From Candidatus Enterousia sp. (GTDB taxonomy: Bacteria > Pseudomonadota > Alphaproteobacteria > Rs-D84), in assembly GCA_045651525.1 (NCBI GenBank), contig JAZRSO010000032.1:4523-68522 (forward strand): 64,000 nucleotides of DNA, read 5' to 3'. Below the pieces are notes generated by a model that did no database searches, had not been told where the DNA came from, and saw only the letters and a list, made by a program, of their open reading frames with translations. Shown here in pieces: positions 3,468-58,551 of the stretch. The position numbers and the translations under genes are program-made. The stretch's first letter is position 1. Every line of letters starts with the position of its first letter.

Positions 3468-5955
3468 GAATGTTTTTTATGCGACAAATCCAGCGCGTAT
3501 TTCAGATGCGTTGTGGCAGGTTATGTCTGAATCTGGGGTTGATGTTGCCGATATGCTGATATTCTTGCCCAGCCGTCGCGCTGTTCGCAGTGTGGAAAAA
3601 ATGATTGCAGAAAAAAAGGGTGGGGTGGCAATATTGCCAACACTGGTACCGCTTGGTGATGGTGCAGATTTTGATGAATCCGATGATGATGTAACAGGTG
3701 AAATTTCTGATACAGAACGTGTTGTTGTCTTGGCAAAATTATTGGCTGCGGATGCAAGTGTTGGAAATTTATCAACAGGATTATTGTTGGCACATGATTT
3801 GGTGCGTATGCAGGATTATCTGGAAAATGAAGGCGTTGATGCAGCCAGTATTGATTGGGACAGTTTGGTTGATGAAAAATATGCAACACATTTTCAAAAC
3901 AAAGCGCGAATATTAAATATATTGTCTGGGTTTTCAAAATTGTATGCCAATGGTCGTATGACTGGGGTACAGGTCAGAAATCGTGATATTCGTAATTGGG
4001 TAAATCATTTTGATAAATATAAATTAGTTATTGTGTGCGCATCGACCGCCAGTGTGCCGGCGACGGCTGATTTAATGCGGGCGGTATATAATTTGCCACA
4101 TGGACGAATAATTTTGTCTGGTAAAATAGATGGTCGTGTTGCGGACTTTGAATTAGATACAAATCCATATAATTCTGAACATAAGTTTTTAAATAGTGTT
4201 GGTCTGACGCAGGCTGATGTTTTGCCAATTGATGTGGGCGCATCTGCAATTGACTTTATGAATTATGCGTTTGGTAATGATTGTTCTTCTTTAAGCGTTG
4301 ATACAGATTTATCGCATTGCCATCTGGTTGTCGCCCCAACTGAAGCGGTCGAGGCATCAGCCGTCGCGCATATCACAAGGCGCGCGTTGGATGAAAATAA
4401 ATCTGTTTTGATTATTACGCCAGACGCGGCCGGAAATCAACGTATCGCAAATGCGTTTGTGGCACATGGTATTGATGCAGATTTTTCATCTGCCACGTCT
4501 GGCACAATGACAAATACAGGACGCGCATTATTAAATTTGATGGACAGTTGGATTGAATCAGGCAGTGGTGTTTTTGATAAAATATATACTCAATCTGAGT
4601 TTAATTTGTTTGAGACGGTTGCAAAAATTGTTGATGAAAATGTGGCTGATTTTCGTCCTGCATTTATTGCGGATGATGATACAAGTGTGCAGATATGGAC
4701 TGAAATAAAGAAAGTGTCTGATGCGTTGGTTGCGGCTGATATAAAACTGACATTGGCAGATGCACGTGCTTTTATTGCAGATGCGTTATCAAATGTGTCT
4801 GAGCGTGGTGCAATGAAAACAGATGCGCGTGTTGTTGTGTTGGGTACTATTGAATCACGTATGCAGACCGCAGATGTTGTTATCTTAACAGGTTTAAATG
4901 ACGGGATGTTCCCAGCCCAAGGGTATGAAAACGCATGGTTGCCGACGCATGTGGCAAAAGATATTGGATTGCCATCACCAAACAGAAAAGTATCTTTGCA
5001 ATCACTGGACTTTATGAATTTGTCATGTGGTGGTGAAGTATATTGGTTGCGTTCCGCTGTGTCTGGTGGCGTGCAAACCAGTGAATCCAGATTTATATCA
5101 CGCGTAATCGCCAGACGTGCAAATGTTGATATAAAAACAGGTGAAAAAATTATCGCGGATGTTTTGTCCCAAGATGATGTACCGTATCATCCGTTGGATG
5201 AAAGTGTGCCAACACCACCGGCGGATTGGTCTGATGTGTTTGTGACAGAGTTAGAATTATTGATTCACAACCCATATGCTTTTTATGTTCGTCATATTTT
5301 AAAGTTGCGTGTGTTGGATGATTATTGGGTTGTTGCAGATGCGCGTAAGTTTGGCAATCTGGTGCATGGTGTTATTGAAAATGCAACAGATTTGCGACCT
5401 GATGTTTTGGTGGCACAAATGGATGCGGCAGCATTGGAAATTCTGGGACGTGGCAGTATTTTATTCCATTTCTGGCATAAAAGATTTTTGGAAATTGCAC
5501 CTGTGATCGCAAATGAATTGACCAAGATTCAAAATGCAAAATCTGAAATCGAAGGTGGTATAAAAATCGCAGGACGAAATGTTCGCGCCCGTGCAGACTT
5601 GGTTTGGGATGGTGGGGTTATGGATTTCAAGACTGGTGCCGCGCCAAATAAAAAACAATTGCTGGACGGTAATATGCCACAGTTACCATTAGAGGCATTT
5701 ATGTTGCAATCTGGTGGTTTTAAAATTCAAACAAGTCCGCTTTCAAATGCACCAATAATGAAATTTTTACAGTTAAAAAATAATGATGTTCGTGTGATTG
5801 AATATGACGCGACGACAACGCAACAAATGATAAATGCAGCTGTTGCCAAGACCACAGAATTGTTCAATATGTATTCTGCTGGTAATGCAGGTTATGAATA
5901 TCACGAAACAAATGAGGTCAGGTATAAAATTTATGATGATTTAAAACGGGTGTGA
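3454..5955 (+). CDS. addB: Double-strand break repair protein AddB (alphaproteobacterial type, PD-(D/E)XK C-terminal domain)
   Basis: 833-aa ORF. C-terminal GNLVHGVIE ... RADLVWDGGVMDFKTG nuclease-like motifs. TTG start at 3454 is uncertain. Confidence 0.7.
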   Translation: MASNKNVFYATNPARISDALWQVMSESGVDVADMLIFLPSRRAVRSVEKMIAEKKGGVAILPTLVPLGDGADFDESDDDVTGEISDTERVVVLAKLLAADASVGNLSTGLLLAHDLVRMQDYLENEGVDAASIDWDSLVDEKYATHFQNKARILNILSGFSKLYANGRMTGVQVRNRDIRNWVNHFDKYKLVIVCASTASVPATADLMRAVYNLPHGRIILSGKIDGRVADFELDTNPYNSEHKFLNSVGLTQADVLPIDVGASAIDFMNYAFGNDCSSLSVDTDLSHCHLVVAPTEAVEASAVAHITRRALDENKSVLIITPDAAGNQRIANAFVAHGIDADFSSATSGTMTNTGRALLNLMDSWIESGSGVFDKIYTQSEFNLFETVAKIVDENVADFRPAFIADDDTSVQIWTEIKKVSDALVAADIKLTLADARAFIADALSNVSERGAMKTDARVVVLGTIESRMQTADVVILTGLNDGMFPAQGYENAWLPTHVAKDIGLPSPNRKVSLQSLDFMNLSCGGEVYWLRSAVSGGVQTSESRFISRVIARRANVDIKTGEKIIADVLSQDDVPYHPLDESVPTPPADWSDVFVTELELLIHNPYAFYVRHILKLRVLDDYWVVADARKFGNLVHGVIENATDLRPDVLVAQMDAAALEILGRGSILFHFWHKRFLEIAPVIANELTKIQNAKSEIEGGIKIAGRNVRARADLVWDGGVMDFKTGAAPNKKQLLDGNMPQLPLEAFMLQSGGFKIQTSPLSNAPIMKFLQLKNNDVRVIEYDATTTQQMINAAVAKTTELFNMYSAGNAGYEYHETNEVRYKIYDDLKRV

Positions 5956-5956
5956 T

Positions 5957-6727
5957 TTATTTTATTTCAATCATCAGTCCACAATGGTCTGTTGGTTTTT
6001 CAGCCAGTCTTGGTTCAATGTCTATTTCACAATTTTTGACCATCTTTGCGGCCGATTTATTGCACAGAAAATAATCCAGTCGCAGACCTTGTTTATTTCC
6101 AACTGTATCACGGCCACGATAACCATACCATGTATAATCAATTTCGTCTGGGTGCAGGTTGCGCCATGCGTCTGTCCAACCAGAATCCAGCCATTCGTTC
6201 ATAATGGCGCGCGCCTGGGGGGCAGAAATTGCAACACCTTCGTAATTTTTTGGCTTCCATATATCCCTGTCTTCGATTGCGACATTAAAGTCGCCACCAA
6301 TAATAACGGGTTCTTCTGAGTTCAGATATTGTGCGATGTATTGTGTAAATGCACGCATCCATTCCAGTTTATATGGAAACTTTGGTGATGTAACCAAGTC
6401 GCCATTTGGCATATACACATTGATTACACGTACGCGACCATCAATCACGCATTCCAAGAATCGTGCGTTTGTATCTGGGTATGTTGGCATACCCATTGTT
6501 ACATCTTCGATAGAATATTTTGAAAATACAGCAACGCCATTCCATGACTTTTGACCAAAAACCTTTACATTATATCCGTATTCATCAAAGACCATATGTG
6601 GAAAGTTTGCGGTTTCAACCTTTAATTCCTGGACCAAGATTGTGTCGTATTCGCCGGCACGCAGAATGTCAATAAAACTTTCAATATGGGCGCGGATAGA
6701 GTTTATATTTAATGTCAGTATTTTCAT
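5957..6727 (-). CDS. xth: Exodeoxyribonuclease III
   Basis: MKILTLNINSIRA, GDFNVA and DHCGL motifs of the EEP/ExoIII family. Confidence 0.9.
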   Translation of the reverse strand: MKILTLNINSIRAHIESFIDILRAGEYDTILVQELKVETANFPHMVFDEYGYNVKVFGQKSWNGVAVFSKYSIEDVTMGMPTYPDTNARFLECVIDGRVRVINVYMPNGDLVTSPKFPYKLEWMRAFTQYIAQYLNSEEPVIIGGDFNVAIEDRDIWKPKNYEGVAISAPQARAIMNEWLDSGWTDAWRNLHPDEIDYTWYGYRGRDTVGNKQGLRLDYFLCNKSAAKMVKNCEIDIEPRLAEKPTDHCGLMIEIK

Positions 6728-6798
6728 ATTTGCAATCCTGTTTCTTGTTCTGTATAATACCCATTGTCCAATATAAAAACAACAAGGAAATTTTTACT

Positions 6799-8379
6799 AT
6801 GAATATGTATCAGTTACTGGAACGTACCGCACAAACATGGCCTGATAATTTGTATCTGGTCCGCGAAGGCGTTACATACAAAGAATTCATTAACTTGGTC
6901 AAGGCGCGCGCTGCATCGTTGGATGCCGCCGGTGTTAAAAAGGGCGATGTTGTCGGTATTTTGTCGCACAATATCCCAGAATTCCCAATTACTATGTTTG
7001 CAATTTGGTATTTGGGTGGAACTGTATTGTTGCTGGATACAAATCTGACACCATTTGAATATGACAATATGGCATCTATTACAAATTGTCATATGGTATG
7101 CGCTGAAAAGTCTTTTGTTTACAAGACCAGTAAATTTAAATTCTATGACATAACTAAAAAAGATGGCAAGGTAAAACCAGAGTTAAAGCCTGCAAATGTT
7201 GAATCATTGGATATTGCAACAATGTCATTTACATCTGGGTCAACAGGCGTACCAAAGGTTGTACCATTGACGCACTTTAATATTGTTGAGTGCACCAATT
7301 CATTAGAATCAATGGCAGAATGGATTAAACCTGGTGACTATCTGTATGGCTTTTTGCCAATGTATCACGTGTTTGGTTTTGCAGTTGAAGTTTTGGCAAC
7401 ACTGCATTATGGCGCAGGTGTGTTATTGCAGCCAACAATCAATCCAAAAGAAATTATGGCAGATTTCAAGAAATTCCGTCCACAGGTTATCCCAGCTGTG
7501 CCAAGATTATGGGAAGTTTTCCGTAATAAAATCATTGACAATGTCAAGGCACAAAAGAAATGGGGATTGGTATCTTTTGTATTAAAGTACGGTAAAACAT
7601 TGAATAAAATCGGGCTTGGATTCTTGGTACGCAAGGTACAAAAACCAATCTTGGATGTGTTTGGTGGTCGTGCACGCTTGCTGATTGCTGGTGGTGCTGC
7701 CACAAAGCCAGAGGTTGAAACATTCTATGAACGTTTGGGATTGACCTTTATTCAAGGGTATGGACTGACAGAAACTGTTGGGCCAATCTGTATTTCAAAG
7801 CCAACCAAGAAACGTTTCCCATTTGCGTTTGGTGCGCCAACATTGAACAACGAATGTGAAATTCGTGATAAAGACGAAGATGGTGTTGGTGTTCTGTGGT
7901 TGCGTGGTCATCAGGTTTTTGGTGGTTACTTGAATAACGAAGAAGCCAACAAAGAAATCTTTGATGAACGCGGCTTCTTTAATACAGGTGACATGGTTAC
8001 AATGGATAAAAATGGTGAATTGCACTTTGCGGGTCGCAAAAAGCAAGTTATCGTTTTGGACAGTGGTAAAAATGTTTATCCAGATGAGCTGGAAGGTATG
8101 TTTATCACAATCCCAGGTGTAAAAAATGTTGCTGTATTTGAACATGTTGTCAAAGACAAGACTGTTACATATGGTGTATTCAGTGTTGAACCAGATATGA
8201 CAATGGAAAAACTGGGGGCGGCGATTGCGGCGGCAAATAAAAAGGTTGCAAGTTACAAGTGGGTTACACACTATGCGATGACAACCGAAGATTTGCCACT
8301 GACAGGTACGCAAAAGGTTAAACATCATCAAGTTCGCAAGAATTTGATTGATGGGAAATATCCAAACCGCCACGAGTAA
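6799..8379 (+). CDS. AMP-dependent synthetase/ligase (long-chain acyl-CoA synthetase-like)
   Basis: AMP-binding motif SFTSGSTGVPKVV, plus YGLTE and TGD motifs. ATG at 6799 with AAGGAAA SD is preferred over the 6712 ORF start, which overlaps xth. Confidence 0.85.
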   Translation: MNMYQLLERTAQTWPDNLYLVREGVTYKEFINLVKARAASLDAAGVKKGDVVGILSHNIPEFPITMFAIWYLGGTVLLLDTNLTPFEYDNMASITNCHMVCAEKSFVYKTSKFKFYDITKKDGKVKPELKPANVESLDIATMSFTSGSTGVPKVVPLTHFNIVECTNSLESMAEWIKPGDYLYGFLPMYHVFGFAVEVLATLHYGAGVLLQPTINPKEIMADFKKFRPQVIPAVPRLWEVFRNKIIDNVKAQKKWGLVSFVLKYGKTLNKIGLGFLVRKVQKPILDVFGGRARLLIAGGAATKPEVETFYERLGLTFIQGYGLTETVGPICISKPTKKRFPFAFGAPTLNNECEIRDKDEDGVGVLWLRGHQVFGGYLNNEEANKEIFDERGFFNTGDMVTMDKNGELHFAGRKKQVIVLDSGKNVYPDELEGMFITIPGVKNVAVFEHVVKDKTVTYGVFSVEPDMTMEKLGAAIAAANKKVASYKWVTHYAMTTEDLPLTGTQKVKHHQVRKNLIDGKYPNRHE

Positions 8380-8674
8380 AAATTAAATCTAATAGTATAT
8401 CTACGAACAAACCCGAAACCTCATGTAACTTCTGTACACTACGGTTTCGGGTTTGTGCGTATCTACACTATTATCTTTTATTTTTTTACACTAATCACGG
8501 GTGGTTGGGGCAACTCATGTAACGTTATGTACACTACGCCATTGCCAACCCGTTTATCTATACCATTATCTTTAATTTTTTTACACTAATCACGGGTGGT
8601 TGGGGCACCTCATGTAACTTCTGTACACTACGGTTTCGGGTTTGTGCGTATCTACACTATTATCTTTAATTTTA
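8380..8674 (+). repeat. Three tandem ~100-bp palindromic repeat units (family P), starting right after the stop codon
   Basis: Loops TCATGTAACTTCTGTACACTAC at 8421-8442, 8515-8537 (variant) and 8610-8631. Flanking complementary GC-rich stems and AT-rich terminal inverted repeats AAATTAAA..TAAT / ATTATCTTTAATTT. Confidence 0.9.
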
Positions 8675-8706
8675 TAAAAAAATCCCCTATGTTTGGGGAT
8701 TTTTTA
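8675..8706. terminator. Bidirectional rho-independent terminator between the convergent ligase gene and mnmE
   Basis: A-run, ATCCCC-TATGTTT-GGGGAT hairpin, T-run; overlaps the mnmE stop. Confidence 0.7.
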
Positions 8707-10002
8707 TTTTCCTAAACAAAGTTGGCCGAATGTCATGTCCATAACCTCGGACGCGGTGATGGTGCCAAGTATTTTTCCAATGGCGTCTGCGGCGCGACGG
8801 GTGTGTTCTGCGAAAATGTCGTAATTGTCGCCGGCGTCAATCGCGTTTTCCAATTCGATGTATGCAGATTCCAGTAATGACTTTGTACGCGCGTTTACAG
8901 ATACAGTTGATTCTGCGCCGTCAAACATTTTATGAATTTGTTTGCGTAACGTATTCATCAAATCGCCCATCCCGTCGCCTGATTTTGCAGATGTATAAAT
9001 CGCATTTTTACAATCGTGGTTTTTGATTGTATCTGATTTGTTTATAACAACAATTTCGTTGTTGTCTGGATTGTTGCAAGCCACAGAATCTGGCCTATAG
9101 ACGTGAATTACAATATCTGCATTTTCAATTTCAGACATTGTGCGTTCAATGCCAATGTTTTCAATTGTGTCGTCTGTTTCACGAATGCCTGCGGTGTCAG
9201 ATAAATTTACCATAAATCCATCAATATCGATTGTGCTGGACACAACGTCGCGTGTTGTGCCGGCGATATCAGATACGATTGCACGATTTGTGCCAACCAT
9301 ATAATTAAAGATTGATGATTTTCCGACATTTGTTTCGCCGGCCAATACGACATTTATTCCGCCACGAATACTGCGTGCAGTTTTGTATTGTGTCAGTGCA
9401 TTTCCAATTTCGTTATATAATTGTTTTGCGCTGTTTTGGACTGTGTCGCATATGTTTGCAGGCAAATCATCTGGACTGTAATCAAGAATTGCGGCGGCGT
9501 ATGCAGAAACCTCTATCATCTTGTTGCGCCAGTTGTTGTATATTTTGCTGTCAAATCCCATCATTGAACGCAGGGCGTGTTTGCGTTGCATATCTGTCTG
9601 TGCGTCCAATAATGCCGCCAATCCATCAATATCTGCCAAATCCATTTTGTTGTTATAAAATGCACGTCTGGAAAATTCCCCAGGTGTTGCCATGCGCATA
9701 TTTTTTGTTTGTAAAAAATCGAAGACCTTGTTTATAACCGCAGGTGCACCGTGTGTATGCAATTCAATAACGTCTTCGCCTGTAAAAGAATTTGGGGCAG
9801 GGAAGTAAATTGCCAAACACTGGTCAATCAAGTCATTATTTTCATCACGCAGATTTGTAAAATACGCGTGGCGTGGTATTGAATCTGATTTGTTTATAAA
9901 TGTTGCAAATATATCAGATAAGTTTTCGCCAGAAATACGAATGACGGAAACACCAGATTTTCCATGTCCACTTGATAATGCGAAAATTGTGTCATTATTC
10001 AT
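8704..10002 (-). CDS. mnmE: tRNA modification GTPase MnmE (TrmE)
   Basis: G-domain GETNVGKSSIFN, DTAGIR, NKSD; C-terminal CLGK tetrapeptide. Confidence 0.92.
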   Translation of the reverse strand: MNNDTIFALSSGHGKSGVSVIRISGENLSDIFATFINKSDSIPRHAYFTNLRDENNDLIDQCLAIYFPAPNSFTGEDVIELHTHGAPAVINKVFDFLQTKNMRMATPGEFSRRAFYNNKMDLADIDGLAALLDAQTDMQRKHALRSMMGFDSKIYNNWRNKMIEVSAYAAAILDYSPDDLPANICDTVQNSAKQLYNEIGNALTQYKTARSIRGGINVVLAGETNVGKSSIFNYMVGTNRAIVSDIAGTTRDVVSSTIDIDGFMVNLSDTAGIRETDDTIENIGIERTMSEIENADIVIHVYRPDSVACNNPDNNEIVVINKSDTIKNHDCKNAIYTSAKSGDGMGDLMNTLRKQIHKMFDGAESTVSVNARTKSLLESAYIELENAIDAGDNYDIFAEHTRRAADAIGKILGTITASEVMDMTFGQLCLGK

Positions 10003-11749: not shown

Positions 11750-12466
11750 ATGAGTGGACACAGTAAATGGCATAATATTCAACATAAAAAAGGCGCAGCC
11801 GATGCCGCACGCAGTGGTTTGTTTACAAAACTGGCACGTGAAATCACAATGGCTGCGAAATTGGGCGATAAAAACCCAGATAATAACCCAAGATTGCGCT
11901 TGGCAATTTTGACAGCACGCAAAAATTCAATGCCAAACGATAATATTAAACGCGCAATTGACAAGGCGTCAGGTTCAAATACAGAAAATTATGAATCTGT
12001 ACGTTACGAAGGTTATGGCCCAGGTGCTGTGCCTGTTATTGTAGAGGCGTTGACAGACAATCCACGTCGTACAGTGCCAGAAATTCGCAATATCTTTGGT
12101 AAAAATGGCGGTAATATGGGCGAAGAAGGTTCTGTTGTGTTCATGTTCACACGTGCAGGTCAAATTATGTATCCTGCATCAATCGGCAAAACCGAAGATG
12201 AAATGATGGAAATTATTATGGAGGCAAACGCAGACAATCTGGAAGCGTCCGAAGAGGGCTTTATCATCACAACCAAACCAGAAGATTTTGTAACCGCACA
12301 AAAATACCTGGCGGACGTCTTGGGTGAACCAGAACAAGCCGAACTGACCTGGTTGCCAAATATGCCAATGGACTTGGATGACGAAGCATATGCAAAACTG
12401 GAAAAGTTGGTTGATGCATTGGATGCGAACGACGATGTGCAGAAGGTGTTCACAGCCGCCGCCTAG
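11750..12466 (+). CDS. yebC: YebC/PmpR family DNA-binding transcriptional regulator
   Basis: N-terminal MSGHSKWHNIQHKKG signature. Confidence 0.9.
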   Translation: MSGHSKWHNIQHKKGAADAARSGLFTKLAREITMAAKLGDKNPDNNPRLRLAILTARKNSMPNDNIKRAIDKASGSNTENYESVRYEGYGPGAVPVIVEALTDNPRRTVPEIRNIFGKNGGNMGEEGSVVFMFTRAGQIMYPASIGKTEDEMMEIIMEANADNLEASEEGFIITTKPEDFVTAQKYLADVLGEPEQAELTWLPNMPMDLDDEAYAKLEKLVDALDANDDVQKVFTAAA

Positions 12467-12647
12467 TAAAAATAAATTATAATAATTCATCTGTGGGCGG
12501 TCCCGATGGCTCATGTAACTTCTGTACACTACGCCATCTGGACCGTTCCACATTTAAATCATTCTAATTTATTTTTACGCTAGTCACGGTCTATGATAGG
12601 TGCGTATCTAAACCATTATCTTTAATTTCTTCGCTAATTACGTGATG
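12467..12647 (+). repeat. Family P palindromic repeats: one full unit, one loop-less unit and a TCGCTAATTACG tail
   Basis: Loop TCATGTAACTTCTGTACACTAC at 12511-12532 with stems GGCGGTCCCGATGGC / GCCATCTGGACCGTTCC; second unit 12576-12628 lacks the loop. Confidence 0.85.
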
Positions 12648-12657
12648 TGGCATATTT

Positions 12658-13383
12658 GTGGTATTTGTTTTGAGATGGTATTTGGAAGATGTTGAAAGTG
12701 CAATTTGTCGGGCAAAAAAGAAAATTGCCCCTGTGGTTGATGGTGTGGTCAATGATTTAGATTTACCAAAAAATACAGATGTTTTTGCGGTGGGCGGATT
12801 TGTTCGTGATGCTGTTTTATGCGAACTGACAAATACACGCTTTGAACCAAAAGATATTGATTTAATATTATCAAAGAAGCCAGATTTGTCACAAAATCAA
12901 AATATTTTATGGAAACAGGAAAATTCTTTTGGTGGGATAAAGTTGTGGTTGAAAAATTTTCCAGAAGTTGACATTTTTGATAAAGAATTTGATTGGCCCG
13001 ATATAATTGTTGGGCAGTATTTTGATTTTAATGTAAATTCTTTGTTTTACCATAACAGGTCACAGCAAATTTTTGCTGCTGCGCCGTTTTATGCCTTTAC
13101 ATCAAATAAAATAATAGAATTGGAAAATTATCGGACGGCAAATAATAAATTTGAAACTTTGTATAAAGATTCTGCATTGGTTTCGCGTGCGTTAAAATTT
13201 CAAGTTTTGTTTCGTGAAAAATATGGTATAGATGCCAGACTGTCTTGGACAATTTTGCATGTGTTGTATGATATGAATAAACAGACAGAACAAAAAATGT
13301 TTGAATACACACAGCAAAAAGTAAAAGATGAAAATCTTAGAAATAAAATTATAGAAAATTATTATCGTATAAAATCTCACTAG
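12658..13383 (+). CDS. Minimal CCA-adding/poly(A) polymerase-family nucleotidyltransferase head domain (241 aa)
   Basis: VGGFVRDAVL...KDIDLIL (GGxVRD + DxD) and DFNVNSLFY (resembles the RDFTINAL motif). No in-frame ATG near the 5' end; GTG/TTG start inferred. Confidence 0.5.
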   Translation: MVFVLRWYLEDVESAICRAKKKIAPVVDGVVNDLDLPKNTDVFAVGGFVRDAVLCELTNTRFEPKDIDLILSKKPDLSQNQNILWKQENSFGGIKLWLKNFPEVDIFDKEFDWPDIIVGQYFDFNVNSLFYHNRSQQIFAAAPFYAFTSNKIIELENYRTANNKFETLYKDSALVSRALKFQVLFREKYGIDARLSWTILHVLYDMNKQTEQKMFEYTQQKVKDENLRNKIIENYYRIKSH

Positions 13384-13455
13384 AATGCGTGTGTTTTCCT
13401 GTTTGTTTTGATTCCTTTTTGTGATATAATTCAACACAGTTATGTGGAGAGGTTT

Positions 13456-14475
13456 ATGTTAAAGTTTTTATTATCATTTGTTTTTGTGTTTATAGCGATG
13501 AATTCGGTGTCTGCGGATGAAGTTTCTTTTACTGATGCGTTGCGTGCTGTTCGTAGTAATTGTAGTGGAATTTCTGAAAAATTATCAGAAGTAAAAAAAA
13601 TGGCTGGAATAACCACGGCTGTTTCCGCTGTTGGAACTGCTGTGGGGGTTGGTGCTGTTGCAACGGGTGCGACAAAGAGCAGAGTAGATAATGTTTCTGA
13701 TAATTTTGATCAGCAAATTCAGGTTTTGCAAAGGCTGGAATCAAATCCAACATCAGAAGATGTTTTGGAATTGGGAAAATTACAAAATGATCTGGCTGAT
13801 ATAACCCATAATAAAGAGTTAAAAGAAAAAGCGACGAATACTAATTGGGAAGATGTGGCGCCAGAAAAAATGTCTGAATCTGTCAAAAGTAAAGGTTTTA
13901 CTAAATCTGTGCAAGGTTTGAACGAACAAGCAGATGACATGTCTAAAAAAATTGGCGATGCTGAAACAGGGTTGATGGCGGCTGCGACCGCAACAAATAT
14001 CGCTAGTGCTGTTATGTCAGGGGTAAATAAAATAGACGCGGATTTTGCAACGCATATTGGCGCATGTGTTGGATCTGTGCAATTACTGGCTGGATTGAAA
14101 ATTCAGGCAAAAATGGATGGCAGTGTGTCAGATGAAGAAATTGCTGTTGCTGATAAAATTATTAATGCTTGCGATAACTTTAATGTTTCGGATATAGAAA
14201 AAATTAATAGTCGTGCAACTGGTGCGACTGTGGCAAGTTCTGTTGGTGCAACAACTGGATTGGCTGGTGCTATAACAGCTGGGGTTGCAAATTCAGATTC
14301 TGTAAATAATGGCGATACTAAAGACAAAGAAAGAAAATTAAATACAGCGTCTAATGTTTTATCAGGTGTTACAACGGCGGCTTCTTTGACTGCAACAGTA
14401 TTTAACGCAACGCAAATAGCTGCGGCAAAACGTGTTATTGAAACGGCTGAATTGTGCGAAGAATCTATAAAATAA
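13456..14475 (+). CDS. Secreted hypothetical protein with four Gly/Ala/Thr-rich segments
   Basis: Signal peptide MLKFLLSFVFVFIAMNSVSA|DE; GGAGAGG SD before ATG 13456; segments such as TTAVSAVGTAVGVGAVATGATK. Confidence 0.6.
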   Translation: MLKFLLSFVFVFIAMNSVSADEVSFTDALRAVRSNCSGISEKLSEVKKMAGITTAVSAVGTAVGVGAVATGATKSRVDNVSDNFDQQIQVLQRLESNPTSEDVLELGKLQNDLADITHNKELKEKATNTNWEDVAPEKMSESVKSKGFTKSVQGLNEQADDMSKKIGDAETGLMAAATATNIASAVMSGVNKIDADFATHIGACVGSVQLLAGLKIQAKMDGSVSDEEIAVADKIINACDNFNVSDIEKINSRATGATVASSVGATTGLAGAITAGVANSDSVNNGDTKDKERKLNTASNVLSGVTTAASLTATVFNATQIAAAKRVIETAELCEESIK

Positions 14476-16809: not shown

Positions 16810-16919
16810 TTTTATAATCCCCCCACTTGTAAAATCTTTTAATAATGCTATATTATCATAAAACAGGGACGCAAGTCCAGACATTAAGGTCGCCACAATT
16901 ACACCAAGGAGAAATTATA

Positions 16920-17345
16920 ATGGCAAAATTTAATATTATATCCCAATTCTTGAAAGACATTTCTTTTGAAAGCCCAAATGTTCCAGAATTGTTCTTTAAA
17001 AACGACAACAGTCCTGCAAAGATGGAAATCAATATTGATTTACAGGTCAAGGGTGCAGAAAACAACTTGTTCATGGTTGACTTGATTGTAAAAGCACATT
17101 CAAAATTGGAAAATGGCGACAAAACAATCTTTTTGATTGAATCAACATATTCTGGCCTGGTTCAAATGGAAGAAGAAAAAGACGAAGAAGCAAAAAAACG
17201 TACATTGTTGATTGATGTTCCAACATTGTTATTCCCAGCTGTTCGTGGCTTGATTACACGTTTGACATCAGAATCAGGATTCCCAACATTCGCGATGCAG
17301 CCTGTGGACTTTGCTGCGTTGTATGCCCAAAAACAGGCAAAATAA
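16920..17345 (+). CDS. secB: Protein-export chaperone SecB
   Basis: FNIISQFLKDISFESPN start region typical of SecB; AAGGAGAAA SD before ATG 16920. Confidence 0.85.
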   Translation: MAKFNIISQFLKDISFESPNVPELFFKNDNSPAKMEINIDLQVKGAENNLFMVDLIVKAHSKLENGDKTIFLIESTYSGLVQMEEEKDEEAKKRTLLIDVPTLLFPAVRGLITRLTSESGFPTFAMQPVDFAALYAQKQAK

Positions 17346-17552
17346 ATTATAATAATTCATCTACGAACGAACCCGAAACCTCATGTAGCATCTGTTCACT
17401 ACGGTTTCGGGTTCGTGCGTATCTAAATCATTCTAATTTATTTTATATATTTGCTGATAATAATTCATCTGTGGACGGTCCCGATGGTTCATGTAGCGTC
17501 TGTACACTACACCATCAGGACCGTTTCACATCTAAATCATTCTAATTTATTT
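17343..17552 (+). repeat. Two tandem family P palindromic repeat units beginning at the secB stop codon
   Basis: Loops TCATGTAGCATCTGTTCACTAC (17381-17402) and TCATGTAGCGTCTGTACACTAC (17489-17510), each with its own complementary GC-rich stems. Confidence 0.9.
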
Positions 17553-17557
17553 TTACG

Positions 17558-17589
17558 CTAATCATGAATTTGTGATTAGTGTTTTTTTA
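17558..17589 (+). terminator. Rho-independent terminator built from the TACGCTAATCA repeat tail
   Basis: CTAATCA-TGAATTTG-TGATTAG hairpin followed by TGTTTTTTT. Confidence 0.6.
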
Positions 17590-17607
17590 TGATATAATAT
17601 TCAAACT

Positions 17608-19942: not shown

Positions 19943-19949
19943 ATTTGTT

Positions 19950-19980
19950 CCCCAGTCGTCTGGCTGGGGTTGTTTGTTTT
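19950..19980 (+). terminator. recA rho-independent terminator
   Basis: CCCCAG-TCGTCTGG-CTGGGG hairpin followed by TTGTTTGTTTT. Confidence 0.65.
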
Positions 19981-20000
19981 ATAACCAAGGGGGTGTGATT

Positions 20001-20897: not shown

Positions 20898-20910
20898 CAA
20901 GGAAATTTAC

Positions 20911-21684: not shown

Positions 21685-21697
21685 TCTGGGGGTAAAT

Positions 21698-24644: not shown

Positions 24645-24666
24645 AATTTGTTCCTTTTTTATATTA

Positions 24667-30465: not shown

Positions 30466-31362
30466 ATGTATGATGTAATTATCTTGGGTTCTGGGCCTGC
30501 GGGTTTGACGGCAGCATTATATGCAGCCCGCGCAAATAAAAAAACAATCGTGTTGGGTGGTGACAGACTGGGTGGTCAAATGGCAGGAATCGCCACATTG
30601 GAAAATTATCCTGGATGGGAAGGCAGTGGTATTGCGCTGGCTGAATTTATGAAAAATCAGGCGGAAACATTTGGTGCGTCTGTTGAATTTGTAAGCGCTA
30701 CAAATGTTTCAAAGAACGCAGATAATGATTTTGTTGTATTGGCTGGCGACAAAGAATATATTGGCAAAACAGTTATCGTTGCCACAGGTGCCAGCCCACG
30801 AAAACTTGAAATTGCCGGCGCGCGTGAATTGATGGGGCGGGGCGTTTCGTACTGTGCGACATGTGATGGATTCTTTTATAGTGGTAAAACAGTTATTGTT
30901 ATGGGGGGCGGAAACAGTGCGTTAAACGATGCTTTGTATCTGGCTGATTTGGCAAAAGAAGTCAAAATCGTGTACCGCAAATCTGAATTCTTTCGTGCCG
31001 AAGCGGTCTTGCGTGAACGTGTGGCAGGGCGTGAAAATATCGAATGCTTGTTTAATACAGACCTGGCAAAAATCGAAGAAAAACCAGATTCCACAGATGG
31101 CGAACTGATTGTTACAACAACATCTGGCGAACAGTTGGTTGTTGATGGTGTGTTCGTTGCAATCGGACACGAAGCCAATACAGACTATCTGTCCGAAGAT
31201 ATTAAACGCGATGCGCTGGGGCGTCTTGCGCCATCTGCATTACCCGCAGGTATGTTTGTTGCCGGTGATGTTCATTCTGATTTGAAAATGCAAATTGCAA
31301 CTGCGGTTGGAACTGGATGTACGGCAGGGATGGATGCAATCGCCTATCTAAATAAATTATAA
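30466..31362 (+). CDS. trxB: Thioredoxin-disulfide reductase
   Basis: GSGPAG FAD motif, redox-active CATCDG, GGGNSA NADPH motif. Confidence 0.93.
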   Translation: MYDVIILGSGPAGLTAALYAARANKKTIVLGGDRLGGQMAGIATLENYPGWEGSGIALAEFMKNQAETFGASVEFVSATNVSKNADNDFVVLAGDKEYIGKTVIVATGASPRKLEIAGARELMGRGVSYCATCDGFFYSGKTVIVMGGGNSALNDALYLADLAKEVKIVYRKSEFFRAEAVLRERVAGRENIECLFNTDLAKIEEKPDSTDGELIVTTTSGEQLVVDGVFVAIGHEANTDYLSEDIKRDALGRLAPSALPAGMFVAGDVHSDLKMQIATAVGTGCTAGMDAIAYLNKL

Positions 31363-31470
31363 ATTAAATCTAATGGTATATCTGCAAGCGGTGCCGGCAA
31401 TTCATGTAGCGTTTGTACACTACATTGCCGGCACTACTTGCATCTAAACCATTATCTTTAATTTCTGCGC
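31360..31470 (+). repeat. Single family P palindromic repeat unit beginning at the trxB stop codon
   Basis: Loop TCATGTAGCGTTTGTACACTAC (31402-31423) with stems GCGGTGCCGGCAAT / ATTGCCGGCACTAC. Confidence 0.9.
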
Positions 31471-33607: not shown

Positions 33608-33640
33608 AAAAAAGAATAAAAAACCGCAATTGCGGTTTAT
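33608..33640 (-). terminator. Terminator of the Stealth-family gene
   Basis: AAACCGCAATTGCGGTTT palindrome overlapping the stop, followed on the minus strand by a T-run. Confidence 0.65.
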
Positions 33641-44652: not shown

Positions 44653-46893
44653 ATGGCAGGGAATAGAAAGTCTAATTTTTTACCAGAACGCATGTCTGGC
44701 GCATTAAAAAGTTTGGCACAGCGCATAATTGGTGCGGGTATTTTTTGTGTCTGTATTTGGGCTGTGATTGCGATGTTGTTTTATAATCCATATCTAGATG
44801 GTGTGGCTGTATCCAGTGGTTTTGGCGGTCAGTCTGTCATGGGATACATTGTTGGTTCTGTGCGTTATGTGGTTGGTGTCATACCTGGATTGTTTTTATT
44901 TTTATCGTTGGCGCGTTGGGGTGCTGCCAAGATGTTTGGTTTTGAATATGAACATTTGCCGGAATATAATTTCTTGCGTGGGTTTATTGCGCTGTGTTTG
45001 GGGGCGGTTGGTTTTGGTTTGATTGCGCCCAGCGCGACATATGGGGGATTGTTTGGTGCGATTGCTGCGACTGATTTGACTTATTTATTGGGTGGCGTGT
45101 CTGTAATTGTTGGTATTTTGTGTATGGTTGGTTTCTTTATTATGGCGGCGATGCTATTGCATGTAAGAATTCAGCATTTACGCTGGGTATATCGTGTTCT
45201 TGTTCGTTGGGTTCGTTGGTTGGCATCTGCGTTTGGTCTGACAAAATACGTTCCACAGCCCGATGAAGAAGAGATAGAAGAAGCCGAAGAAGCAGAAGAA
45301 ACAGAAGAAGAAACAGACGCAGAAGAGGAAAAACCAAAACGTAAACGCAGTTCAAAAAAGGCGGTCACCGCTGTTGCAGTCGCAAAGCCACGCAAACAGG
45401 CGGCGGCATATGAATTGCCAGATACCAGATTCTTGGAACGTTCTAATTTTAGTAAATATTCTGTGACGCCTGAATTAAAGCAAAACGCTCGCAGTATGGA
45501 GGTTAAGTTCTCGCAATACGGTGTTCATGGCAAGGTTGTTGGAATTAAGCCGGGTCCCATTGTTACATTATATGAATTTATGCCAGACGAAGGTACGCGT
45601 ATGGCAGATGTCAATAAAACTGTTACCGATATGACACGTGCGATGGCAACAGAAAGTATTCGTATTGCACATATCCCAAAGACCCAGTTGATTGGTGTTG
45701 AAATGGTAAATCTGAAACGTCAGACTGTGCGCTATCGTGGTCTGATGGAAGACGAAACATTTGTTGAATCAAAATACAAGATTCCATTGGCACTGGGTGT
45801 TGATATTGGCGGAAATCCGATGTATTTTGACTTGGCCAAAATGCCACATATGTTGGTTGCAGGGCGTACTGGGTCTGGTAAGTCTGTATTTGTTCAATCA
45901 ATTATTACATCAATTGTTTATCACTTTACGCCTGATAAATGTAAACTGATAATCATTGACCCAAAGGGTGTTGATTTTGGTTTCTGGGATGATATTCCAC
46001 ATCTTATCACGCCAATTGTAAAACTGGAACCAGAACCGGCGGTAAATGCGCTGAAATGGGCGGTGCGCGAAATGGAAGAAAGATATAAACAGTTACAGGT
46101 ATTAAACGCGCGCAATATTGAAAGTTATAATGAAATTGCGGCACAGAAACGCGAAAGTGGCGAAAAAATTACAAAGCAAGTTGCTGTTGGTACGGACGAG
46201 GAAACAGGCGAACTGCTGTTTGAAACCCAAGAAGTCGATTTGTCTGATATGCCATATATGGTAATCATTATTGACGAGGTGGCCGACCTGATGAGTCTTG
46301 CCCGCAAAGATGTTGAGGCATGTGTTCAACGTATCGCACAAAAGGCACGTGCCGCCGGTATTCACCTGGTTATGGCGACCCAGCGTCCAGATGCAACAAC
46401 CATTACAGGTGTTATCAAGGCGAATTTCCCAACACGTATTTCATTCCAGGCGCGCAGCCGTATCGACAGTGTAACATGCCTGGGCGAAGGCGGGGCAGAA
46501 CAGTTGTTGGCTATGGGCGACATGCTGTTTAGCGAGGCAGGTCGTGTCCCTGTCCGTATCCACGGTGCCTTTATCGACGATAAAGAATTAAAACGCATTG
46601 GGGATTTCTTGCGTTCCCAGGGCGAACCAGAATATGCCGATGGCGTAACAGATTCTGCGGACGCATCTGGTGGTGATGCGATGGGCGGATTTGGTGGTGG
46701 CGGTGGCGACAAAGATGGCGACCTGTACGCACGCGCCAAAGAATGTGTAATTCGTGATAAAAAACCAACAATTTCATACATTCAACGTCGCCTGCAAATT
46801 GGATATAACAAGGCTGCGGGCTTTATGGAACGTATGGAGGCAGATGGTATTGTGTCTGCGCCGGACGCCAACAACAAACGCCACATCCTATAA
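44653..46893 (+). CDS. ftsK: DNA translocase FtsK
   Basis: N-terminal TM helices, acidic linker, Walker A VAGRTGSGKSV, IIDEVADL, gamma domain YIQRRLQIGYNKAAGFMERME. Confidence 0.95.
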   Translation: MAGNRKSNFLPERMSGALKSLAQRIIGAGIFCVCIWAVIAMLFYNPYLDGVAVSSGFGGQSVMGYIVGSVRYVVGVIPGLFLFLSLARWGAAKMFGFEYEHLPEYNFLRGFIALCLGAVGFGLIAPSATYGGLFGAIAATDLTYLLGGVSVIVGILCMVGFFIMAAMLLHVRIQHLRWVYRVLVRWVRWLASAFGLTKYVPQPDEEEIEEAEEAEETEEETDAEEEKPKRKRSSKKAVTAVAVAKPRKQAAAYELPDTRFLERSNFSKYSVTPELKQNARSMEVKFSQYGVHGKVVGIKPGPIVTLYEFMPDEGTRMADVNKTVTDMTRAMATESIRIAHIPKTQLIGVEMVNLKRQTVRYRGLMEDETFVESKYKIPLALGVDIGGNPMYFDLAKMPHMLVAGRTGSGKSVFVQSIITSIVYHFTPDKCKLIIIDPKGVDFGFWDDIPHLITPIVKLEPEPAVNALKWAVREMEERYKQLQVLNARNIESYNEIAAQKRESGEKITKQVAVGTDEETGELLFETQEVDLSDMPYMVIIIDEVADLMSLARKDVEACVQRIAQKARAAGIHLVMATQRPDATTITGVIKANFPTRISFQARSRIDSVTCLGEGGAEQLLAMGDMLFSEAGRVPVRIHGAFIDDKELKRIGDFLRSQGEPEYADGVTDSADASGGDAMGGFGGGGGDKDGDLYARAKECVIRDKKPTISYIQRRLQIGYNKAAGFMERMEADGIVSAPDANNKRHIL

Positions 46894-47108
46894 ATTAAAT
46901 CTAATAATTCATCTACCCGCGGTGCCGGCAATTCATGTAGCGTCTGTACACTACATTGCCGGCACTACATGTATCTAAATTATTATCTTTAATTTCTACG
47001 CTAATCACGGGCAGGGGTGTGAAACCTCATGTAACTTCTGTACACTACGGTTTCGGGTTTGTGCGTATCTACACTATTATCTTTAATTTCTACGCTAATC
47101 ACGGGTGG
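46891..47108 (+). repeat. Two tandem family P palindromic repeat units plus tail, beginning at the ftsK stop codon
   Basis: Loops TCATGTAGCGTCTGTACACTAC (46933-46954) and TCATGTAACTTCTGTACACTAC (47027-47048); tail TACGCTAATCACGGGTGG. Confidence 0.9.
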
Positions 47109-47179
47109 TAATAAAAGTTTTTCATTTTTCACTTTTATATTATTTCAAAATATGATAAAATTTTATTTATAGAGAGAAT

Positions 47180-57094: not shown

Positions 57095-57110
57095 ATTCGT
57101 TCCTTTGTGT

Positions 57111-58507: not shown

Positions 58508-58521
58508 TACGGTTTTTATTG

Positions 58522-58537
58522 TATCATATTTATGATA
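58522..58537. promoter_or_regulatory. Perfect 7-2-7 palindrome TATCATA-TT-TATGATA in a 44-bp divergent intergenic region (candidate operator)
   Basis: Centred between the starts at 58507 (-) and 58552 (+). A third TATGATA half-site overlaps ATG 58552. Confidence 0.35.
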
Positions 58538-58551
58538 AAGTAGGAAGAGTT

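Follow-up and report, generated by a model that had tools for sequence, protein, structure and literature searches.

The window analysed here, a stretch of 64,000 nucleotides, comes from a Candidatus Enterousia species (Alphaproteobacteria, order Rs-D84), gut bacteria with genomes of less than 1 Mb. It contains nine loop-bearing units of a palindromic repeat, family P, plus one loop-less remnant, at five loci (8380, 12467, 17343, 31360 and 46891), which are the only family P loci in the window and all lie on the + strand. A sequence-only reading of this DNA had counted about ten units at these five loci, and the count holds: the loop TCATGTAACTTCTGTACACTAC, with at most three mismatches, has eight matches in the window (8/8 on the + strand), 100 shuffles gave none, and the ninth copy has a 23-nt loop (8515-8537). 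An unfiltered covariance model finds full units at 8376-8487, 12466-12578, 17336-17447, 17448-17552, 31357-31468 and 46888-46999, and partial units at 8565-8676 and 47021-47054. Each of the five loci begins at the stop codon of a + strand gene or overlaps it, and these upstream genes (encoding an acyl-CoA ligase, YebC, SecB, a TrxB-like protein and FtsK) lie in conserved synteny. ARAGORN found no tRNA or tmRNA.

The five arrays of the window

Array 1 follows the gene of an AMP-binding acyl-CoA ligase (6712..8379, + strand, from the ORF list; Pfam AMP-binding, E = 1e-64), for which an exact-protein look-up returned no record and whose TAA stop (8377-8379) abuts the array without a gap. As the sequence-only reading had described, three tandem units occupy 8380-8674, at a spacing of 95 and 94 nt, all on the + strand. 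Unit 1 (8380..8486) is a complete hairpin, recognised as an inverted repeat and scoring 111.7 bits with the covariance model; it consists of a left arm (8380-8404, ATCT boxes at 8387-8390 and 8399-8402), stem, loop and stem (8405-8420, 8421-8442 and 8443-8458) and a right arm (8459-8486, ATCT boxes at 8461-8464 and 8473-8476). Unit 2 (8487..8580) is secondary: the linker TTACACTAATCACGGG and a degenerate left stem, with no left outer arm, precede the loop (8515-8537, 23 nt), stem (8538-8555) and right arm (8556-8580). In a relative of about 91% identity (L045), an intact first unit with this stem type sits at the stop codon. Unit 3 (8581..8674, 29.3 bits) is a chimeric secondary unit, in which the linker, a left stem of unit-2 type and the loop (8610-8631) are joined to a right side of unit-1 type (stem 8632-8647, right arm 8650-8673), and this right stem and arm pair with the left side of unit 1 (8379-8420 with 8632-8673, 86%). 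The four-part unit proposed earlier (outer arm, inner stem, loop, complementary stem and arm) describes the first unit of an array but not units 2 and 3 (8487-8674), which lack a left outer arm and have degenerate or chimeric left stems. Similarly, TACRCTAATCACGGG, which had been taken for an alternative outer arm, is instead a 3' extension or linker, present after the last unit of arrays too. A canonical bidirectional intrinsic terminator, AAAAAAATCCCC-TATGTTT-GGGGATTTTTT (8680..8712), stands between array 1 and the convergent mnmE gene (8704-10002, - strand).

Array 2 follows a gene of the yebC/TACO1 family (11750..12466, + strand; TAG stop, then TAA). Its complete unit (12467..12578, + strand; loop 12511-12532; 102.9 bits) is followed at 12579..12643 by a 3' extension, ACGCTAGTCACGG, and the loop-less remnant of an older unit. 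As read from an alignment of the window with L043, L071 and L086, the remnant (about 12600-12643) comprises a right-stem end, right arm and extension, and the whole unit is intact in the relative L043. In array 3 the TAA stop (17343-17345) of secB (16845..17345, + strand) sits within the left arm (AAAA-TAA-ATTATAATAATTC). This array has two + strand units, at 17336-17447 (loop 17381-17402; 115.1 bits) and 17448-17552 (loop 17489-17510; 71.4 bits), the second with a shortened left arm, and its 3' extension (17553..17590) is a canonical terminator hairpin, GCTAATCA-TGAATTTG-TGATTAGT, followed by T7.

Array 4 is a single complete unit (31357..31468, + strand; loop 31402-31423; 113.5 bits) behind the gene of a thioredoxin-reductase-like (trxB-like) flavoprotein (30466..31362, + strand), whose final codons (LNKL) and stop are made of the left-arm sequence AAATAAATTATAA. 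The unit takes up the entire 114-nt gap before the convergent gene at 31477-32214 (- strand) and is the only hairpin between the two. Array 5 (46888..47110, + strand; 105.4 and 30.8 bits) begins within ftsK (44653..46893, + strand), the TAA stop of which (46891-46893) overlaps the first part of the left arm. Behind the complete unit (46888-46999, loop 46933-46954) come a secondary unit, the left stem of which is not complementary (loop 47027-47048; the right arm ends at about 47092), and the 3' extension CTACGCTAATCACGGGTGG, which runs up to 47110.

Unit anatomy, placement and replication strand

A family P unit is about 108 nt long, and within an array the full palindrome is confined to the first unit. 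Read 5' to 3' on the sense strand of the gene, a complete unit is made of a left arm, ATCT box, stem, loop, stem, ATCT box and right arm, often followed by a small, lineage-specific 3' hairpin. The left arm is A-rich, begins at the stop codon or overlaps it, and has TAA triplets in two reading frames, while the right arm is T-rich and ends in a T run (arm consensus AAAAT(A/T)AA...(T/A)ATTTT). The inner stem (16-19 bp, GC-rich) is free in sequence with its pairing kept, and the apical loop has 22 nt, TCATGTARCNTYTGTACACTAC. Its commonest variant, TCATGTAGCGTTTGTACACTAC (59 copies), contains TAGCGT, and the second commonest has TAACTT at this place. On the sense strand the loop ends in CTAC (GTAG at the loop start on the other strand), which lies inside the hairpin and not at its foot. 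The 3' modules frequently contain a GCAA-type loop and the motif GCAAGGGG.

This anatomy and the constraint on pairing are evident in a gapless alignment of 46 units, in which 89.3% of cells are paired and both sides have changed in 31 of 40 pairs; the covariation score is 0.486, as compared to 0.163 in shuffles (0/500 reached 0.486) and 0.06-0.11 in slid controls. Stem position 2 is Watson-Crick in 124/124 units and uses all four bases. In the same alignment the centre of the unit is more conserved than the termini, and the 2x2 mismatch between arms and stem, an ATCT box on each arm, is invariant (46/46 units). The mismatch seen in several copies by the sequence-only reading is thus real, and the conserved loop with complementary stems that it described is found among copies from related genomes as well.

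Two further readings of the loop were tried and dropped. In the case of a start-stop mini-ORF (ATG-TAA or ATG-TAG in the loop, with an AAGGGG or AAGGAG ribosome-binding site in the 3' module), the spacing amounts to 11-17 nt, and other lineages have lost the ATG-stop. As for a dif/XerD arm (TTATGTAA), the likeness covers a single half-site, and the loop has 22 nt, not 28.

Family P sits at stop codons and is co-oriented with the gene: for 109 of 121 arrays, the stop codon of an ORF in the same orientation (80 codons or more) is found 29-65 nt 5' of the loop, and it is TAA in 104 of the 109. The array starts no more than 12 nt from the stop in 85/109, as compared to 25.9 +/- 3.1 expected under uniform placement and random orientation, and placement within intergenic gaps is far from uniform. 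The stop of the upstream gene is often furnished by the left arm itself, the contribution of family P to the upstream ORF being the last few codons at most. A few open frames run through units and look like chance extensions, and no convincing in-frame insertion inside genes was seen. The flanks of the units show no target-site duplication, and no 4-5 nt target is conserved at the left end, where only an A/T at position -2 stands out.

The family is also restricted to one replication strand. With the direction of replication inferred from GC skew in 8-kb pieces together with simple ORF calls, raw skew gives 85/86 on one replication strand, and the window copies are 9/9 on the G-rich strand. 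When replication skew was separated from coding skew (67 loci), family P was found at 57 of 216 terminal gene ends on the leading strand vs 1 of 169 on the lagging strand (p = 4e-15). A KOPS or Chi-like polar motif was also considered for the loop; such motifs are G-rich 8-mers that require no hairpin.

Turnover, terminators and spread of the family

Family P turns over between species. Whether an orthologous gene end is occupied or empty depends on the species, and occupied ones also differ in stem type or arm variant, at slightly shifted offsets. Compared to a relative of about 91% nucleotide identity, the window has gained a unit at the yebC stop, and the relative's intact unit is the remnant here. 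A good inner stem is found in 114/127 first units vs 19/55 later units, and complementary outer arms are kept in 2/55 later units. Arrays are all head-to-tail; the only opposite-strand neighbours are two loops flipped inside otherwise normal arms. We considered, and did not adopt, the idea that ATCT is a 4-bp target duplication made by an inner element on entering an outer palindrome. Outer arms joined by a single ATCT were found in 0 of the first 118 loci, and the one such join in the metagenome set (L128) could as easily be a deletion between CATCTGC repeats. Copying of the stems from the flank at insertion, suggested by L083 vs L056, was rejected too, since L126-L130 show the same arms as a subfamily, and L056 is a truncated remnant.

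Presence of family P and of canonical terminators is inversely related. In ortholog groups of mixed occupancy, a canonical terminator lies within 70 nt in 19/42 empty sites vs 8/65 sites after arrays (p = 2e-4), and at the empty orthologous sites of array 1, the TAA is directly followed by a terminator like that at 8680-8712. Terminator frequency at element-free gene ends does not differ between the strands (leading 64/155, lagging 49/137). Within the unit, the AT-rich arm stands between the GC-rich inner stem and the T run, and the right arm holds no textbook U tract beside the GC stem; the terminator role is a predicted one, and this point tells against the explanation favoured below. The same is true of folding, in which the antisense strand is more stable than the sense strand (RNA, -48.1 vs -38.1 kcal/mol; DNA, -26.8 vs -22.7 kcal/mol; more stable in 32 of 39 cluster representatives), as would not be expected of a function of the sense strand. 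The wobble bias of the inner stem is opposite (sense strand G.T 155 vs A.C 83).

All genome stretches returned by a loop scan, more than 118 and without exception from the Rs-D84 clade, contain the same loop; the first locus set was picked by exact loop match, so that loop invariance within it is partly circular, and in the protein-ascertained locus set the loop drifts in more distant lineages. Family P is confirmed as a real, dense and modular palindromic repeat family. It is apparently undescribed, with RPE, ERIC and Correia compared by their descriptions, in line with the earlier failure to recognise any named family: Rfam at gathering thresholds gave no match in the whole window, and at E-value thresholds (8330-8730) only miRNA-precursor-like hairpin noise and terminator-like matches at 8680-8712; blastn against plasmids and phages gave no match; the loop pattern was absent from the viral contigs scanned; and we found no paper describing the family. 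A transposase that could mobilise the units, which the sequence-only reading suggested looking for, did not turn up: none was found in the 64-kb window with Pfam and NCBIfam, and no Y1 transposase (HUH and tyrosine motifs, crude regex) in about 1.1 Mb of related loci, which also counts against the favoured explanation. The sole tyrosine recombinase in the window scores as XerD/XerC, and no full-length parent element between solitary arms was seen.

Origin and role of family P

Several known systems resemble family P in part. REP/BIME elements, which go with RAYT (TnpA-REP) Y1 transposases, are high-copy intergenic hairpins at gene 3' ends as well, frequently in clusters, with a presumed processing as single-stranded DNA and a secondary use in mRNA stability or termination. 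REP has a conserved GTAG/GTGG tetranucleotide at the 5' foot of its hairpin, and GTAG is the reverse complement of the CTAC at the loop end. However, family P units measure about 108 nt as compared to 20-40 nt, start strictly at stop codons and keep to a single replication strand; REP conserves the stem, whereas here the loop is invariant and stem columns use all four bases; BIME arrays alternate; and REP flanks a RAYT gene, of which none was found in the 64-kb window or, by crude regex, in about 1.1 Mb of family P loci. With arrays head-to-tail and conservation in the loop instead of the stem or termini, the REP comparison made by the sequence-only reading is not supported in the form given. 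Bidirectional intrinsic terminators share the order of A tract, GC-rich stem-loop and T tract right after the stop codon, and in other species they stand at sites occupied here by family P, which differs by an AT-rich arm of about 24 bp between the tracts and the GC stem, the conserved 22-nt loop, the mismatch boxes, discrete subfamilies and mobility. By description, compact genomes also harbour other small repeats of palindromic or modular build (RPE, ERIC/IRU, Correia, BOX and MIRU): RPEs belong to reduced genomes of Alphaproteobacteria, BOX is modular, and MIRUs overlap neighbouring stop codons. Compared by description again, RPEs insert in frame within genes whereas family P follows ORFs, and Correia and ERIC have TA duplications and both orientations, unlike family P. 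To our knowledge, none of these families unites loop conservation and freely varying stems with confinement to a single replication strand.

The lack of target duplication, head-to-tail arrays, conserved loop and fixed orientation together suggest a strand-specific route (e.g. through single-stranded DNA) and a role at the 3' ends of genes. We tentatively favour, at a little short of even confidence, the explanation that family P units are strand-specific mobile hairpin elements at the 3' ends of leading-strand genes, copied through single-stranded DNA and serving as terminator or 3' hairpin. Copies would be made or inserted via a single-stranded intermediate at the replication fork, the sense strand of the element always being the lagging-strand template, and recognition of the loop and mismatch boxes in the folded strand would fall to a putative trans-acting enzyme. 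New copies would arrive at the stop-codon side of the gene end, and resident copies, shoved downstream, would lose their left half and decay, giving rise to arrays. The resident hairpin and its T run would be transcribed as the mRNA end; as a predicted terminator or 3'-end protector, it could replace a canonical terminator. The closest likeness for such a route is with IS200/IS605 elements and their miniature derivatives (PATEs), which passages of two papers (PMC5027513, PMC6006769) describe as hairpin-based, moving through single-stranded intermediates with the active strand on the lagging-strand template that they target, and leaving no target duplication. By this likeness, family P probably uses a single-stranded route too. 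IS200/IS605 needs a fixed tetra- or pentanucleotide at the left end and has separate subterminal end hairpins and TnpA, whereas family P has no left-end target, one long hairpin instead of two and no TnpA found, which again speaks against the favoured explanation.

Family P could instead be a host-selected 3'-UTR RNA module with a loop that is the binding site of a host protein (acting in mRNA stability, termination or ribosome release at the neighbouring stop codon) and which spreads by duplication and gene conversion alone; this is possible, though unlikely. It would agree with starts within a few nucleotides of the stop codon with no conserved DNA target, with a conserved loop on covarying stems, with the preference of inner stems for G.U on the sense strand, with 3' modules that often have the GCAA-type loop and GCAAGGGG, and with the replacement of canonical terminators. 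Strand restriction would then come from selection, e.g. for keeping the stronger-folding strand off the lagging-strand template, where the weaker-folding one does lie, as in attC of sedentary integrons (PMC5371416). Such a restriction (57:1 for the leading strand) is hard to obtain from RNA function alone, however, and the sense strand folds worse overall than the antisense strand. The same gene end also has unrelated subfamilies (arms and stems) in close relatives, the decaying older units within arrays indicate turnover and not a conserved resident, and the arms are too short and too different for conversion to swap whole elements. A non-autonomous MITE of the classical DDE type (Correia, ERIC or RUP-like), moved by way of its terminal inverted repeats and best tolerated directly behind stop codons, is most improbable. 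In its favour are the arms of about 24 nt, which form imperfect inverted termini (the sequence-only reading had likened the outer arms to terminal inverted repeats), the small size, the large number of copies and the intergenic position, but there is no target-site duplication or flanking target, orientation is not random and is fixed relative to gene and replication, placement in intergenic gaps is non-uniform, the centre is more conserved than the termini, and solitary arms enclose no full-length parent.

We consider it very unlikely that the units are structured single-stranded DNA sites for a recombinase (attC-like, tyrosine recombinase) or for the replication machinery (single-strand origin or priming). 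Like attC, they are imperfect palindromes directly 3' of ORF stops, in which unpaired positions are conserved and which would be recognised by structure rather than sequence; their bottom strand has more purines, is stabler and lies on the leading-strand template, as in sedentary-integron attC (PMC5371416), the loop variant TCATGTAGCGTTTGTACACTAC holds TAGCGT, the CS-6 hexamer of ssoA-type origins (PMC4598088), and orientation is strictly linked to replication. But attC has R''/R' core sites and a variable terminal loop, whereas the arms here contain no RYYYAAC or GTTRRRY and the loop is conserved; attC goes with intI and cassette arrays, and here there is neither integron integrase nor cassette array, the upstream genes being syntenic housekeeping genes and the one tyrosine recombinase of the window XerD/XerC-like. 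TAGCGT falls within the loop's variable part and is missing from the second commonest variant (TAACTT). We also know of no dispersed chromosomal priming hairpins, which counts against this explanation. Its far-reaching form, quite unlikely in our view, has folded single-stranded sites at leading-strand gene ends across the chromosome, with loop and ATCT boxes read by a dedicated enzyme, as a new recombination, gene-end replacement or lagging-strand priming system (attC- or sso-like); the stop codon and terminator of a gene would then come from a replaceable module, in a genome of less than 1 Mb.

If family P is a mobile hairpin copied through single-stranded DNA, as we favour, bacteria stripped of most of their genome and mobile DNA would keep on the order of a hundred copies of it (a figure extrapolated from the 5 loci and 9-10 units of the 64-kb window). 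Stop placement at the level of the nucleotide together with a single replication strand is an unusual combination, and the family would offer a natural system for how single-stranded DNA processes at the fork pick their targets. The invariant loop on a free stem may serve as bait for the putative binding protein, and the covariance model can be used for gene-end annotation in Rs-D84 metagenome assemblies. In these genomes, family P would furnish the stop codons, and probably the terminators, at about a quarter of leading-strand transcription-unit ends.

Units of family P and their pairing

At 8380-8674, three units of family P are arranged head-to-tail with spacings of 95 and 94 nt, as the sequence-only reading had described. 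With at most 3 mismatches allowed, the 22-nt loop motif TCATGTAACTTCTGTACACTAC has 8 matches in the window, 8/8 on the + strand, and 0 matches in 100 dinucleotide-preserving shuffles of it; a ninth unit has a 23-nt loop (8515-8537). A covariance model made from related copies and run unfiltered over the entire window found the same five loci and no others, with full units at 8376-8487, 12466-12578, 17336-17447, 17448-17552, 31357-31468 and 46888-46999 and partial units at 8565-8676 and 47021-47054. Together with a loop-less right-arm remnant at ~12600-12643, the nine loop-bearing units agree with the earlier estimate of about ten units at five loci. In each window array, the first unit alone is a full palindrome: units 2 and 3 at 8380-8674 lack the left outer arm, and their left stem is degenerate or of another stem type, so the four-part palindrome ascribed to each unit holds for first units only. 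TACRCTAATCACGGG, previously taken for the outer arm of downstream units, has to be reassigned as a linker or 3' extension, since it is found after the last units of arrays, too.

An exact scan with the loop pattern, using one genome per species, gave more than 118 stretches among the matches listed, and all of the latter are from metagenome-assembled genomes of animal guts, labelled Candidatus Enterousia, uncultured Alphaproteobacteria or Rickettsiales. Enterousia is a member of the order Rs-D84, with genomes mostly <1 Mb and a coding density of ~90% (PMC12306168); one metagenome-assembled Enterousia contig (JBKSMR010000039.1) shares ~91% nucleotide identity with the window. The window and 118 listed genome loci (numbered with L below) contain 179 loop matches in 136 arrays, including 104 single, 24 double and 6 triple arrays, with a maximum of five units.

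We aligned 46 well-paired units (mutually different at >8 of 112 positions) with zero gaps. The stems are variable, and the invariant columns are most of the loop and the ATCT box of each arm; the 2x2 mismatch noticed earlier is indeed kept, as ATCT opposite ATCT (positions 20-21), and one arm variant has a second box of this type. When the obvious hairpin was scored on this alignment against shuffled and slid-partner controls, 89.3% of the cells were paired (71.3% shuffled, 36-42% slid), a percentage inflated by the pre-selection of units for pairing. Double changes are not inflated in this way: 31/40 pairs (24.4 shuffled, 14-18 slid) and 339 cells (112.6 shuffled, 48-82 slid) were changed on both sides, and the covariation score was 0.486, as compared to 0.163 for shuffles (0/500 reached the observed value) and 0.06-0.11 for slid partners. 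The eleven loop-proximal pairs, in ungapped register, are nearly always Watson-Crick with all four bases in use, and stem position 2 is paired in 124/124 units.

Loop invariance among loci found via an exact loop match is partly circular. In a protein-retrieved set of loci, which is free of this bias, close relatives keep the loop on completely different stems, and the loop drifts in more distant human-gut and rumen lineages (TCATGTACGTCTTGTACACTAC, TCATGTATTACATATACACTAC, TTTATGTAGGTTTACTACACCGC). Among the copies found by loop match, the loop has ATG directly followed by TAA or TAG (the A/G variation preserves a stop) and includes the palindromes CATG and TGTACA; TAGCGT, known as the CS-6 hexamer in single-strand origins of the ssoA type (PMC4598088), is part of the commonest variant.

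The antisense strand is predicted to fold more stably than the sense strand (the strand of the upstream gene), both as RNA (means of -48.1 and -38.1 kcal/mol, respectively; antisense more stable in 116/124 units) and as DNA (-26.8 and -22.7 kcal/mol; 118/124). For cluster representatives >20% different, the RNA means are -43.3 and -34.9 kcal/mol (32/39). Three features account for this: the ATCT boxes, whose tandem mismatches are T.C/C.T in the sense and G.A/A.G in the antisense strand; the outer arms, with A.C 203 vs G.T 43 on the sense strand; and the mini-helix of the loop itself, which is more stable as antisense. In the inner stem the bias is opposite (sense strand G.T 155 vs A.C 83).

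Position relative to genes and to replication

All five window loci start at or overlap the stop codon of a + strand ORF. Among the listed loci, 109/121 arrays are preceded by a co-oriented ORF (80 codons or longer) that ends 29-65 nt 5' of the loop, i.e. with its stop in or at the left arm; of the other 12, most are secondary units in arrays with a degenerate first loop. TAA makes up 104 of these 109 stops, at several offsets (31, 38, 42-45), and therefore the element supplies the stop and the last codons in many genes (e.g. secB, ending in ...AAA-TAA, and the trxB-like gene, ending in ...LNKL-stop). The gene context is tandem for 52 arrays and convergent for 44, and only 7 have the upstream gene on the opposite strand. 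Within 12 nt of a co-oriented stop we found 85/109 arrays, where 20,000 simulations with uniform placement within the intergenic gap and random orientation gave 25.9 +/- 3.1 (maximum 39). No conserved target was found upstream of the element beyond A/T at position -2, and no flanking duplication was found, so the placement rule is positional (gene end) rather than a sequence motif. At L074 (~1934) and L004 (~6525) an ORF spans the entire element and stays open for 85 codons or more on either side; probably the downstream ORF is extended 5' by chance, and an in-frame read-through is less likely.

GC skew is positive throughout the window, and every copy is on that G-rich strand. By 2-kb bins the skew is positive in almost all, and the cumulative skew rises near-steadily with small dips at ~10-12 kb and ~26-28 kb; the whole window therefore appears to be on one replichore. 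We separated the replication and coding components of skew in 67 loci whose genes lie on both strands, and their mean absolute values were 0.149 and 0.074, respectively; a replication component of ~0.15 is strong for so small a genome. With replication direction taken from the GC-skew proxy and simple ORF calls on these loci, 57/216 terminal gene ends of transcription units are occupied on the leading strand vs 1/169 on the lagging strand (Fisher p = 4e-15), and the raw-skew version of this count is 85/86. Arrays in one locus share the same strand, save two flipped loops. By this proxy, the sense strand of the element is always the lagging-strand template. The strand that folds less stably and has the pyrimidine mismatches is thus both the mRNA strand and the lagging-strand template, and the more stable one is the leading-strand template.

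Turnover and terminators at orthologous gene ends

Across ortholog groups (clusters of ORF C-termini), the occupancy of many gene ends varies from species to species (e.g. occupied in 8/11, 9/10, 7/10, 5/9 and 2/9). The same gene end has differing stem types, arm variants and slightly shifted offsets in different species (yebC junctions include TAG|TAAAAATAAATT..., TAG|GCAAAAATAAAATC... and TAA|ATTAAATC...), and a limited set of stem types recurs across species and at unrelated loci. First units are intact, with good inner stems in 114/127; later units retain the left arm in 2/55 and have often lost part of the left stem or loop. The ~91%-identical relative has a single intact unit at the yebC stop. 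In the window, a different unit occupies this stop, and all that is left of the relative's unit behind it is a right-arm remnant. The intact first unit that the relative has at the ligase gene corresponds to unit 2 of the window, which is displaced and left-degenerate. In a human-gut lineage (L130 vs L131, L127 vs L125), the resident has lost its left half and loop to a new element that brings a small terminator hairpin of its own, and the two meet at the 3' end of the old loop. Recombination involves the 22-nt loops and inverted stems as well, as shown by chimeric units with their joint at the loop and by two loops that are flipped against their arms. Loops inverted within otherwise normal arms (L011 ~5150-5261, L093 ~2179 onward, L086 ~5193) look like small inversions between the stem arms. 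Right after the ligase stop, L128 (contig OIXQ01000001.1) has only the outer arms, ATTAAATATAACGGCGC-ATCT-GCGCCGTTTTCTTTAATTT, with a single ATCT joint and a terminator next; this form either predates an insertion or arose by deletion between direct repeats.

Empty orthologous sites typically have TAA and, at once, a canonical bidirectional terminator, e.g. TAAAAATCCCGCC-ATTT-GGCGGGATTTTT. Using a simple detector on ortholog groups of mixed occupancy, we found a terminator within 70 nt in 19/42 empty sites vs 8/65 occupied sites (after the array; odds ratio 5.9, p = 2e-4). Two of the window arrays are followed by a canonical terminator (8680-8712, 17553-17590), and the other three are not. The former, the bidirectional intrinsic terminator AAAAAAATCCCC-TATGTTT-GGGGATTTTTT, is between the array and the mnmE stop, and species without the ligase array have the same kind of terminator directly after the ligase stop codon. 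Between two convergent genes 114 nt apart, the element at 31357-31468 is the sole hairpin. Where terminal gene ends lack an element, terminators are about as frequent on the leading strand (64/155) as on the lagging strand (49/137).

Other small modules are found near the elements. T(n)ACRCTAATCAC(GGG) follows many right arms (8488-8502, 8582-8596, 12577-12589, 17556-17590, 46996-47010 and 47093-47108; also in L016, L045 and L094), and its copy at 17556-17590 forms a proper terminator hairpin. Heptamer runs TTAGTGR/CACTAAY in related loci (e.g. TTAGTGGTTAGTGATTAGTG) may be a second small repeat family. The 3' module of other species is a CCCC-(T)GCAA-GGGG mini-hairpin, found in linkers between units (L006, L037, L055, L061, L068, L080, L100, L102), with a conserved GCAAGGGG(T) or GCAAGGAG motif that resembles a ribosome-binding site; the G/T-rich left stem after this module pairs with the next right stem largely by G.T wobbles. 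L123 (human-gut contig ORMR01000001.1) has about seven tandem heptamers AGAGAAC/AGAGTAC directly after the ligase terminator.

Gene content of the window and nature of the family

The window contains ordinary chromosomal genes, including acyl-CoA ligase, mnmE, ruvABC, yebC, secB, recA, a polysaccharide gene cluster, typA and serS, and a trxB-like gene, a XerD/XerC-like recombinase, mutL, secDF, ftsK, mucR and gltX. The lowest GC (0.34-0.35 at 22-26 kb) is in the glycosyltransferase and capsule or rhamnan-synthesis cluster (19902-26360), and a Stealth-family gene is at 33637-34629. One 666-aa ORF (54437-56437) encodes both a YbeY endoribonuclease domain (residues 14-134) and the LNT_N and CN_hydrolase domains of apolipoprotein N-acyltransferase, either as a gene fusion or as two genes merged through a missed stop or frameshift. 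ORFs of 656, 648, 241 and 355 aa and four in a row on the minus strand have no Pfam match (47180-49150, 52478-54424, 12658-14475, 56660-58925), and the four largest (47180-49150, 52478-54424, 12658-13383, 13408-14475) have no NCBIfam match either. A search for a transposase that could mobilise the units had been proposed as a check; in the 64-kb window, none of the genes encodes a transposase, an HUH protein, an integron integrase or a reverse transcriptase.

Taken together, the element is mobile and structure-constrained and obeys two independent orientation rules, relative to the gene and to replication. The replication-strand rule is the hallmark of elements that move via single-stranded DNA at the fork, e.g. 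IS200/IS605 (PMC5027513, PMC6006769), and the missing target duplication fits the same single-stranded route. The placement at gene ends and the scarcity of terminators at occupied sites suggest that genes tolerate the element, or benefit from it, as their 3' hairpin. We tentatively favour, at slightly less than even confidence, a strand-specific mobile hairpin that would double as a terminator or 3'-end module; for this hairpin we infer an enzyme, an insertion chemistry and a terminator activity. A purely host-selected RNA module is unlikely. Sedentary-integron attC sites have been described with the same strand geometry (PMC5371416), and an attC-like or sso-like single-stranded DNA site is rather improbable; a classical MITE is more improbable still.

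Rfam, plasmid and phage blastn and viral contigs gave no match to family P, and literature searches gave no description of it, in line with the earlier failure to recognise a named family. Family P belongs to a known general kind, the intergenic hairpin repeats. So far as is known, no named family shares its combination of four properties: the loop is conserved while the stems are free, units start at the stop codon, the genes concerned are those of the leading strand, and terminators are substituted.
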